IMG/VR virus record: IMGVR_UViG_3300028139_000001
Span: 19,516 to 83,515 of that record
Source: a virus
Lineage: Duplodnaviria; Caudoviricetes
Length of the DNA: 64,000 nucleotides
Direction: 5' to 3' (one strand)
Shown: positions 22,001-62,958 of the stretch, in pieces
Layout of the letters: every line of letters starts with the position of its first letter
How positions within the stretch are numbered: the stretch's first letter is position 1
Made by a program: the position numbers and the translations under genes
Notes under the pieces: model-generated
Seen by the model: the letters and a program-made list of their open reading frames with translations, nothing else
What the model was told of the DNA's origin: nothing
Databases searched by the model: none

Positions 22001-25000
22001 TAGTGATGTTGGGGGTCTATATTAGTAATTATATAGTACGATAGGAGATTATAACTCCTTAATCTTGGCTATATGCTGGAACATCCTTAGATCTTTATGT
22101 ACTTTTTATTATTATAAAGTGAAAACCATAAACATTGGACAATCAGCAGGGAAGTTTTTATGTATTATGGAGTAAATAACCCTTCAACGATCACACGCCG
22201 AGTATCCTTAAATTAAGTATTTATATTAAGGATAGTGATATGATCTGGGCTATTTTATATAGTAGCAAATACGTGTTGATTTTTTATCTAAACTAGCCGA
22301 AGGGCTGGGCTCAGCCTGAGGGAGGCCTCGCCTAGGTTCCTCTAAAAAACTTTTACCTAGTAAATATAGCTTGAGTCCGAGTCCTCGGAATAAAATAATG
22401 GGTCCATCTAAAAGAGAATATTCTACTTCTTCTAGTAACTCATTTAACCTAGATGATATAGACAATAATGAATCTATTAGATTTCATTTTCTTGATACTG
22501 GTTTTATCGAATGGTAAAAAAAAGAGGTTTTGTATTGTTTTTTTTTGACGTTATTTCTTTCAGAAATTACTAAAAAAAACTAGGGGAAGGAAACTTATCT
22601 ATTAAACGAGATCATAATACTTTTGTTTTTATTTTTCAAATAAAACTCCATATTGACGATATTAATATTCTCCACTTTATTAAAAAAAATTTAAAGATGG
22701 GTAATGTTAGATCTTATACCTCAAGTGGTGTGTTGGAAATATCTAAAAAGAGAGATGTTCAAGCATTAATAGACATTTTTTCTAATAATCCTTTAAACAC
22801 GAAAAAATGTTTAAATTTTGACGCGTGAGCTAAAGCATTTAATCTTTTACAAAACTATAGAATAACTAAAGATCCTAATATCTTAGAGGCTATTGCTAAT
22901 CTTAAAGCGTCAATGAATAATTCTAGAACTAATTTTAATTTTTCAGATTATTCTGTTAATATTACTCCTCAATGGTTTATGGGATTCTTTGAAGGTGAAG
23001 GTAGTGTGTTTGTATCTAGAAAAGATTATACTTTAAGTATTTCTATAGGTCAAGCTCTTATTGATGAATATGCTATGCTTAAATTTGCGGAGTTTTTAAA
23101 TCAATTACCTGGTGCTAACCTTTTTAAATCAGAAGGAGCTATTAAAATTTATCGCGCTGAGGGTAGTGTAGGTCATTCTAGGGGTAAAATTGAGTTAGTT
23201 ATTTCTCAAGTTAATTTCATAAAATTAGTATTGGTCCCATTCTTTAACTCTCAATCATGATATGGTAAAAAGTATCTAGATTATCAGGATTTTAAAACGA
23301 TTTTAAGTTTAAAAGAAAAAGGTCATCATTATTCTAAAAAAGGTAAAGACTTAATAGATTTAATTTTATCTCAAATGAATAATAATAGATTATCTACATC
23401 TAATCAACCTATTGTTGATAGAGATCTATTGAATATTAAAGTTCAGACATTGTTAAATATGTCTTCCAATTTTGATTTGCGTGATGGTAGAGTATGGATT
23501 ATTTCTGAAGATAGGTTTCAAAGTGAAGGAGGTAAATCTAAAGCACTTGAACTTTGGGATGATCAGGGGAATTTATTTAATACTTTTAAATCTATTGCTG
23601 AATGTGGTAGATACTTGTCTATATCTCCTACTTCTGTTAGTAAATTAATAAAAAAAAAAAGCGGACTTCTTTACTCTTAATAATAAAAACGTTATTATTA
23701 AATACAATGATAAGACTTAAGTTTATATGAAATCTAGGTACCTGTTTAGATAATATCTACGTTTTTAGCCCTATATGGCGTACAGTTTGCTTTATAGTTT
23801 ATAAATTATAACTACTTTTCCTCTATATCCCAGCTTCGCATGTAAAGAAATTAAATTTAAATATCTAGGAATTTCAGGAGTTTATAAACTAACGAATAAA
23901 AATGATATAAATAGATTTTATATAGGTAGTTCAAATAACTTAGCTAGAAGAATGGAGGAATATTTAAAATTAACGATAGGTTTGAGAAATCCTCATTCAT
24001 CTGGAGAATTAGAAATATCATTAACTCCAGCATCAGAATGAAGCTTAGACTTTATTACATCTCCCCAACTATCTTTAGTTTATGAACAATATGCAATAAT
24101 TATGCTTAGACCTTCAATAAATAGTAATTATAAAGTTATCCCGAGAGTAAATCCTCAATGAGGGAATAATTTAGATAATGCTATTATTGTAATAGAGAAA
24201 TTATTATCTTTATTTACCGTAGGTTCTAAAGGTTTGAAAGATTATCTGTATTCTTACATGTTTTTAAAACAGCTAATAATATAAAATTTGAGCAAGAAGA
24301 TTTAAATAGTGTATATTATTGTTTTTTAGTATTTATTTATGATATTACTTTACCTAATAAAAATCCAATTATTTATTCTTCAATTAATAAAGCTTTAAAA
24401 GGATTACAAATTTGTTATAGTAGTTTATTAGATCATATAAATAATAACTATTTATTAAAATCAAAATTTATCATATCTTTTGAACCAATAATTGCATAGG
24501 ATTTAAAGAATTATAAAGAAAAACCTGTAGGTGATAGCCAATTAAGAAAACATATTACAGTTTATAATAAAGATAATGAGATACTTACAGAATTTAAATC
24601 TGCAAGAGAGATGGGTAAATATTTCAAAATAGATGGAAAAGTAGTTAGAGCTGCTTTAACCAAGGGAGAATTCCAGGATTTTTTACTAATAATTAAAGAA
24701 ATTTCTAATAGAAAAACAGTTTACGTATTTGATAGCGATACATTAGAATTAATAGTTGAATTGACTGGTATATCAAAAGCTATGAAATACGCAAAAGTAA
24801 GTTTTTATACATTAAAAATTTTAATTGAAAATAGAAATTCTTATAACGGTTAAGTATACAGCTACAAAGATAAATTATAATTTTTACAACACTTACGCAT
24901 TAAAAAGTAGAATGCAACATTTCTTAGGTCAAGTAGGCCCTTTATTATAGAAATATAATATTTTGCACAACACTGTATGCTAGAAAATCTATTAGGTAGT

Positions 25001-62958: not shown

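Follow-up and report, generated by a model that had tools for sequence, protein, structure and literature searches.

How do very short palindromes move through organelle genomes? To our knowledge the question has been open since the 1980s, and we know of neither an enzyme nor an intermediate for the GC clusters, the MUSEs, the double-hairpin elements or the small inverted repeats (SIRs). It is raised again by positions 19,516 to 83,515 of IMG/VR record IMGVR_UViG_3300028139_000001, a stretch of 64,000 nt (hereafter the window) of AT-rich fungal mitochondrial DNA (mtDNA; G+C 26-34%), which is dense in intron-borne LAGLIDADG and GIY-YIG endonuclease genes and whose open reading frames (ORFs) were translated with genetic code 4. 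Five families of AT-rich hairpins are scattered through it in 11 copies, namely A (two copies), B (four, one of them reversed), C (one), G (two) and H (two, one reversed); together with a further element at 45829-45870 they make up the 12 verified window copies referred to below. The comparison of filled with empty sites reveals a precise, oriented and site-selective substitution of 3 bp by elements that have a common base. We lean towards the view that they are non-autonomous palindromic mobile mini-elements of fungal mtDNA, forming one superfamily and dependent on one trans-acting activity that replaces 3 bp of target.

Three bases of target are replaced

Presence and absence of the elements at orthologous sites could be followed in the DNA of 38 related loci from one metagenome scan (L001, L002, L004, L005 etc.) and in protein orthologues of the host genes. 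The gene that carries both A1 and B2 has orthologues of 68-89% identity in a protein search, which read GFVDAEGSF at motif 1 and GFA-(T/A/S/N/E)-GEGSF at motif 2. At the DNA level, L001 has GTA GAC GCA at the first site, which is empty also in L014 and others, where the window has GTA followed by A1, from its initial TTA to its final TCA, and then GCA. At the second site GCC ACA GGT in L001 faces GCA, B2 (from TTG to CTA) and GGT. Against L001, exactly 3 nt have thus been swapped out in both places, the adjacent codons are intact and nothing is duplicated. The affected residue is position 6 of the LAGLIDADG motif, which we take to be the Asp that opens DADG; the acidic residue that binds metal comes two codons later. 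The same position is hit by B1, whose host has orthologues at 69-81% identity that read GFVDGEGNF, the Asp codon having been replaced.

Other sites separate the lost bases from the codon. The 95% identical orthologue of the G1 host reads GIY-R-W-I-N, while in the window the Arg codon keeps its C before TAA-G1-TAA and the Trp codon its GA after it, so that 3 nt spread over two codons are gone. In a cob intron, where L005 and L004 are 91-98% identical to the window, the 45829 element (TTA, an 18-bp stem, TTA) stands in place of a codon-straddling GAC and turns DARREQ into DA, 14 further residues and REQ. There is also a reciprocal case, in which a C-like element of L005 (TAAC..GTCA) replaces the non-coding GTT found at 46182-46184 of the window. 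Since two of the losses straddle codons, the unit lost is 3 nt regardless of reading frame and not a codon. For C1, H and G2 the loss was read from alignment with motifs or paralogues.

None of the empty sites (GAC, ACA, GAC and GTT) contains the TNA that flanks the filled ones; the flanking TNA is part of the element and not of the target. These sites also rule out that TNA..TNA is a true 3-bp TWA duplication of the Harbinger kind. Two further candidates were discarded on the strength of the orthologues. The LAGLIDADG flank of B1 is not foreign, as they give GGTTTTGTA as the host's own motif and the A8 run upstream is a local expansion. The Ser codon (TCA) at motif position 6 of the genes at 9801 and 15471 is not an excision footprint, given that orthologues vary between T, A, S, N and E at this place.

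A first-pass annotation, made from the letters of the window alone, had anticipated part of this. Its statement that no target duplication is visible is borne out by DNA at A1, B2, 45829 and the L005 insertion (L005:6415) and by protein orthologues at B1 and G1. It had also supposed that about one codon is deleted; 3 nt are indeed missing, but the codon is not the unit. The motif Asp that it expected to be absent from A, B and C sites is the residue lost at A1 and B1, where orthologues have GAC or Asp, and by motif at C1, but the empty site of B2 is ACA. Its call for a comparison of filled and empty alleles yields 3 nt at A1, B2, 45829, B1 and G1, with B3, the reversed H copy and L005:6415 deviating as set out below.

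A common base under different hairpins

Copies were located by a scan for paired T runs and A runs. Read from inside to outside, the ends of all 11 copies consist of the homopolymer stem, 1-2 Watson-Crick pairs, a 1x1 mismatch and an outer 5'T/3'A pair, which upholds the terminal architecture that the first-pass annotation had ascribed to families A, B, C, G and H. The ends of 45829-45870 are of the same type, though this family has no homopolymer stem. Folding every copy, which the annotation had recommended, gave a hairpin in 11 of 11 cases with z-scores of -1.6 to -5.9 (to -7.1 with the 45829 element). However, the minimum-energy folds mostly end at the first pair outside the homopolymer stem and leave out the mismatch and the outer T-A, so the ends are a sequence signature and not a stable structure. 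In an unbiased list of the 35 window hairpins with a perfect stem of at least 10, a mismatch followed by 5'T/3'A lies outside the stem in 11, against about 4.4 expected from base composition, and complete T-N-A..T-N-A ends occur in 9 against about 1.9. The middle N seemed to differ between the two H copies, but the second is simply reversed.

Related mtDNAs contain many more T-run..A-run hairpins. In an alignment of B-type elements from four mtDNAs, a conserved T run is followed by (C)GACG, an inner stem that varies, CT(AG) and an A run. Of the seven inner-stem pairs, three are compensatory; 94.6% of the cells are paired, against 18-51% in slid controls, and the covariation score is reached in 1 of 500 shuffles. 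The B-type ends in these four mtDNAs are TTG/CTA, TTA/TTA, TTA/TTA and TTC/GAA, i.e., the outer T-A is kept and the third pair covaries, while C-type relatives keep AC..GT and vary at the two outer positions. The end pattern, whose disappearance with more copies the annotation had named as a threat to its proposal, thus persists, being frequent but not universal in relatives: it survives in the B-type elements, and the ends of some copies are fully paired or unpaired. Members of the superfamily share little beyond this base, in which T and A face each other on the outside, the middle position is as a rule mismatched and a single pair covaries. The stem within it is in many cases T(n)/A(n) and encloses an inner hairpin that varies.

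Target choice and orientation

Position 6 of LAGLIDADG holds 6 of the 12 verified window copies, although such motif sites make up about 0.2% of the window; the relatives have 1 filled position-6 site in 414 kb compared with 6 in the 64-kb window. Each family keeps to its own surroundings. A and C always precede GCN-GAR-GG (D-A-E-G sites) and B always precedes GGN-GAA (x-G-E-G sites), even in the non-coding B4. The GGAGAA beside B4 is not a motif remnant carried along by the element; it is native sequence, which L005 and L004 have at their empty sites too. T-rich flanks tend to lie next to the T arm and purine-rich ones next to the A arm; H, which has the reverse polarity, occupies a site of reverse polarity. 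The orientation of a family relative to its target is kept in 7 of 7 secondary copies.

Near-identical copies are dispersed over non-orthologous places. A is identical in two hosts that share 40% amino-acid identity (A1 and A2), and the core of G is identical in the G1 and G2 hosts, which are about 55-65% identical. A C-like element at L002:363 occupies the same motif position as C1. The first H copy (55053) breaks a conserved A-G-S, with G kept before and CA after it; A-G-S is near-invariant in the alignment of the host family (columns 209-211).

Larger insertions are found at or beside the same motif positions. At 42049-43060 a LAGLIDADG_1 gene is split right after GFTDA (near 42181) by a complete second endonuclease gene, and the host resumes near 43000. 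A whole endonuclease gene is likewise inserted after GKSG near 57917. Since whole endonuclease genes landed beside the same motif position, breaks do occur there.

How the elements may insert and spread

The uniform 3-nt loss and the fixed orientation argue for one dedicated mechanism. A single trans-acting mitochondrial activity would recognise the common hairpin or cruciform base and join the element to the target at a pair of nicks that lie 3 bp from each other. The polarity of these nicks (3' overhangs, or a 3-nt gap) would be such that the interval is lost instead of duplicated. The target would be picked by its flanks, a T-rich one on the left by the T arm and a purine-rich one on the right, e.g., G(G/C)N-GAR-GG, by the A arm. 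Such a preference would explain the repeated hits on LAGLIDADG position 6, and secondary spread among paralogous motifs may be helped by short flanking homology. A bolder version, to be entertained only tentatively and on balance improbable, is a new integration chemistry: a structure-specific activity would read the T-A/mismatch/pair base and either place nicks of reversed polarity 3 bp apart or ligate a snapped-back hairpin into a 3-nt gap that matches the width of the hairpin base, with a fixed substitution of 3 bp as the outcome; as the preferred flanks coincide with the sequence that encodes the signature motifs of LAGLIDADG and GIY-YIG genes, the elements would be hyperparasites that disable homing-endonuclease genes.

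Homology alone could do much of this work. One founder insertion per family might have been followed by ectopic gene conversion, templated by the flanks of about 35 paralogous motif copies, with the missing 3 nt, the junctions and the orientation simply inherited. This is less likely than not. Position, junctions and orientation are the same across all copies of A, B, G and H, the families are confined to D-A-E-G (A and C) or x-G-E-G (B) sites, and flanks are shared, over 9-11 nt on the left of the H pair and 8 nt on the right of G1 and G2. However, the flank bases next to the element differ between copies (GTA/GTT, GCA/GTA), and no co-converted markers are visible when the flanks in the window are compared with those of the orthologues. 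Moreover, the single-copy insertions at non-homologous places (45829 and L005:6415) and the non-coding B4 obey the same rule, which argues that the primary event itself replaces 3 nt. A different account, which the first-pass annotation favoured in the form of a common break-and-fill mechanism, perhaps the repair of staggered endonuclease cuts, has resident homing endonucleases cut the conserved motif DNA of other endonuclease genes, after which the ends are trimmed and a free hairpin is ligated in. It would accommodate the zero target duplication and the whole endonuclease genes at or beside the same motif positions (after GFTDA and GKSG). LAGLIDADG enzymes, however, leave 4-nt and GIY-YIG enzymes 2-nt 3' overhangs, whereas 3 nt are lost uniformly, be the target LAGLIDADG, GIY-YIG or non-coding; with passive filling the orientation should be random, which it is not; and no conserved motif was hit at 45829 or 46182. 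The idea of one common mechanism survives, as it fits the shared ends and the 3-nt loss at all three kinds of target, but its attribution to the repair of endonuclease cuts is unlikely on account of stagger and orientation.

Two further explanations were weighed. The hairpins might have been built where they stand, through slippage and palindromic growth of T and A runs, as in the microsatellite palindromes of Fusarium. At 45284-45311 a palindrome has indeed arisen on the spot, at 22516 the A8 run expanded locally, and slippage-type run-length variants of 1-3 nt are seen between samples at 40774, 44226, 50286, 53234 and 53654. But unrelated loci carry the same complex inner sequences in A, B, G and H, and the empty orthologous sites contain no precursor, which refutes growth in place for A, B, G and the 45829 element and leaves it standing only for 45284; as a general account it is highly improbable. 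It is scarcely credible that the hairpins act at the RNA level, being skipped as translational bypass elements or removed as mini-introns so that the host genes keep functioning, although B2 and the 45829 element are in frame and stop-free and TNA direct repeats flank several copies. The triplets that would have to serve for take-off and landing are unlike each other in A (TTA/TCA) and B (TTG/CTA) and out of frame in G, and A1, A2, B1, B3, C1 and G2 shift the frame or carry stops. The hairpins are present in RNA contigs and no listed joint skips them, a weak argument as contigs cannot show absence.

Several observations weigh against, or limit the case for, a single 3-bp replacing activity, which we nevertheless favour. 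The losses at C, H and G2 are read from motif or paralogue alignment. B3 is about 6 nt shorter at its left junction, in a T-rich stretch, where its host family reads GFVEGEGSF; the extra loss of about 6 nt is likely to reflect later slippage. The reversed H copy lacks perhaps 2 nt, not 3, and at L005:6415 the loss is 3 plus or minus 1 nt. B4 offers a single readable junction, the second being hidden by 83 nt of adjoining GC-rich nested hairpins, and an A-like element in L003 and L004 lies within a compound insertion whose junctions are unreadable. Ends in relatives are sometimes fully paired (TTC..GAA, TTA..TAA) or unpaired (GAAC..GAGT, GGGG..CCAG). The replaced triplets (GAC, GAY, ACA, GTT and, as inferred for B3, GAA) have no common motif, so that it is the flanks that matter and not the triplet; a GAY-G target triplet is correspondingly weakened by B2 (ACA), B3 (GAA, inferred) and L005 (GTT). 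Copying guided by homology explains the flank preference and fixed orientation of the families equally well. Presence/absence polymorphism within the species was not found in 2 DNA and 2 RNA contig sets, and no enzyme, intermediate or de novo event has been observed.

Inventory of the elements

The positions of the elements are collected in Table 1. B2 adds 45 nt net and stays in frame, so that its host gene reads through; the 45829 element likewise adds 39 nt net, in frame, to the GIY-YIG ORF 44997-46172. The B4 site is empty in L005 and L004. From the unbiased hairpin list come two candidates, at 38209 and 52964, which may belong to the superfamily by their sequence.

Table 1. Palindromic elements and related sites in the window
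Feature	Position	Strand	Ends and structure	Site
B1	22535..22582	+	TTG-T9-inner hairpin-A8-CTA	Asp codon at position 6 of LAGLIDADG motif 1 replaced; orthologues P0227-P0231 read FIEWFRGFVDGEGNF; host gene runs to 23680
Candidate member	38209..38239		TTA + 11-bp stem + TTA	
H, second copy	39791..39843	-	TAAG..CTAA, reverse orientation	GIY-YIG remnant reading ..SLKIAG on the minus strand up to the element
A1	40772..40832	+	TTA-T10-inner hairpin-A10-TCA	GAC (Asp, motif 1 position 6) replaced; frame shifted
B2	41325..41372	+	TTG-T8-..-A9-CTA	Motif 2 position-6 codon replaced (ACA in L001)
G1	44191..44238	+	TAA-T11-..-A9-TAA	In a GIY-YIG gene, one base past its GIY codons; replaced 3 nt straddle Arg and Trp codons; orthologue P0106 (95%) reads GIYRWINNENGK
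T9-C-A10 palindrome	45284..45311		T9-C-A10	Grown in place from a shorter sequence of L005/L004; not an insertion
Extra family	45829..45870	not assigned	TTA + 18-bp perfect stem + TTA; no homopolymer stem	GIY-YIG ORF
Empty site	46182..46184		GTT	Non-coding; in L005 (6415-6461), flanks 98% identical, C-like TAAC..GTCA instead
B4	50263..50310	-	TTG..CTA	Non-coding; directly upstream (minus strand) of native GGAGAA
GC-rich nested hairpins	50311..50393			Adjoin B4; absent together with B4 from L005 and L004
Candidate	52964-53000			
A2	53187..53245	+	TTA..TCA	Motif 1 position-6 codon replaced, in a distant paralogue of the A1 host
B3	53654..53698	+	TTG..CTA	Motif 2 of the A2 host gene; left junction degraded
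H, first copy	55053..55102	+	TAAG-A12..T8-CTAA	Between GIY-YIG domain and NUMOD domains
C1	57956..57997	+	TTAC-T9-..-A8-GTTA	Motif 1 of LAGLIDADG gene 57932-58906; Asp codon missing
G2	61298..61346	+	TAA..TAA	Diverged GIY-YIG gene, same position as G1

Around some of these elements the window shows further changes. An A8 run lies 14 nt upstream of B1, at 22516-22523, where it replaces the TTTAGA (F-R) of the orthologues and shifts the frame of the B1 host; it is a separate run expansion in place and is able to pair with the T9 arm of B1. The entire GIY-YIG gene that contains G1 (44026-44850) is absent from L002, L004 and L007, whose flanks are 90-95% identical, and looks like a free-standing endonuclease gene inserted in an intron.

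Palindromes of other kinds are present as well. One more hairpin family, composed of an A run, GAACTGT, gca, ACAGTTC and a T run and devoid of T-N-A ends, occurs at 5038-5073, 33461-33500 and 59997-60023, one copy being reversed. A GC-rich hairpin with the stem GTCTTCGAGAC forms an in-frame insertion of about 16 codons at 28540-28590, 30290-30340 and 58703-58750, between ..IIP and FF.. of three LAGLIDADG genes; unlike with the AT-rich families, the host apparently loses nothing. Overlapping GC-rich palindromes with CTGCAG (PstI-like) lie at 37730-37773, within the ORF after cox2. Two other features of the window are a segment at 46578-48515, absent from the elsewhere collinear L005 (91-93% identity) and probably an optional cob intron, and a 60-nt unit repeated four times in tandem at 11889-12185, inside ORF 11586-13070, with 83-89% identity.

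Twenty phyllosphere metagenome runs (14 DNA and 6 RNA) hold at least 96% of the sampled words of the window, and spliced cob exons were recognised in RNA contigs at ~41818, 44997-45190, 48516-48546, 50434 and 52018/57038. Contig depth summed at the hairpin positions amounts to 3-18 times that of single-copy sequence, which suggests further copies in the rest of the roughly 206-kb genome. At 57977, DNA contigs of two runs include a variant in which the C1 loop is 7 nt shorter; its depth is roughly that of single-copy sequence. The total depth there corresponds to about three copies, so that other copies of C are probably located elsewhere in the genome.

Relation to known mobile palindromes

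The first-pass annotation did not recognise the class from the Neurospora, Podospora, Allomyces and yeast families. The nearest relatives of the elements are published: the mtDNA of Annulohypoxylon stygium has hairpin insertions, of which six lie in conserved domains of endonucleases (PMC6140425), and Fusarium tricinctum and Fusarium avenaceum have mobile palindromes of the (A)n/(T)n type (PMC7218506). SIRs, known from A. stygium (PMC6140425) and the Glomeromycota, resemble the elements of the window, all 11 copies and the 45829 element, in being hairpin-forming sequences shorter than 100 bp that are present in several copies and come and go between relatives. According to the available part of the A. 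stygium paper, several of them are likewise found in conserved LAGLIDADG or GIY-YIG domains and were proposed to disable intron mobility, while a common end signature, a rule of 3-bp substitution and a preference for one codon are not reported in that part (PMC6140425). The Fusarium palindromes are similar in that their homopolymer arms measure 7-12 nt and change in length by slippage, in their optional presence between species and in the changes of the adjacent sequence; they are intergenic, have a spacer of 2-4 nt, and defined ends or an insertion rule are not described for them (PMC7218506). In contrast, most families of the window lie in ORFs with precise junctions, one lacks a homopolymer stem, and the spacers of A, B, C and G measure 17-35 nt with a hairpin of their own, only 45284-45311 and the inner part of H having so short a spacer. 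The elements are best read as a variant of these small mobile organelle palindromes. The literature searched, which was mostly non-subscription, yielded no account of the common ends, of a 3-bp substitution or of a preference for position 6.

Comparison with other systems brings out the peculiarity of the junctions. The GC clusters of yeast mitochondria, reportedly the subject of work by Weiller et al. in 1989, are also short palindromic mobile mtDNA sequences that form families of many near-identical copies, some in frame in genes, and they have genuine short target duplications on either side (PMC4478555). The elements of the window are AT-rich rather than GC-rich, their empty sites lack the flanking TNA, and the target loses 3 bp. 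Nuclear miniature elements of the PIF/Harbinger-Tourist kind (Tourist MITEs) are similar in their terminal inverted repeats, their non-autonomy and their TAA/TTA flanks, but in them a TWA target is genuinely duplicated, over 3 bp, whereas here GAC, ACA, GTT and others are replaced. We know of no transposase in mitochondria. The MUSEs of Podospora, the PstI palindromes of Neurospora and the double-hairpin elements of Allomyces are likewise ultra-short invasive palindromes of fungal mtDNA. The PstI palindromes differ in composition (GC-rich, CTGCAG) and the Allomyces elements in architecture (two hairpins); A, B, C, G and H contain no CTGCAG, and A, B, C and G form a single nested hairpin and H two nested stems instead of two adjacent hairpins. 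The byps of Magnusiomyces are reportedly defined, by Lang et al. in 2014, through matching in-frame take-off and landing triplets; here the triplets do not match in A (TTA/TCA) or B (TTG/CTA), and the TAA of G is out of frame. Finally, the hairpin elements of the IS200/IS605-REP type depend on a Y1/HUH transposase and are inserted 3' of a fixed tetra- or pentanucleotide with no target loss, as opposed to the 3 target nt lost here; no gene for a Y1/HUH transposase was seen among the ten ORFs examined.

Consequences for homing-endonuclease genes

This genome offers tests of mechanism, as it combines unrelated families with one signature, base-exact pairs of filled and empty sites, a constant 3-bp loss, a fixed orientation and a flank preference. 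As a consequence, homing-endonuclease genes are frameshifted or given 13-15 extra codons in or next to their signature motifs. The elements thus add a layer of parasitism on homing-endonuclease genes, which may explain the dead endonuclease genes and immobile introns of intron-rich fungal mtDNAs of about 200 kb.

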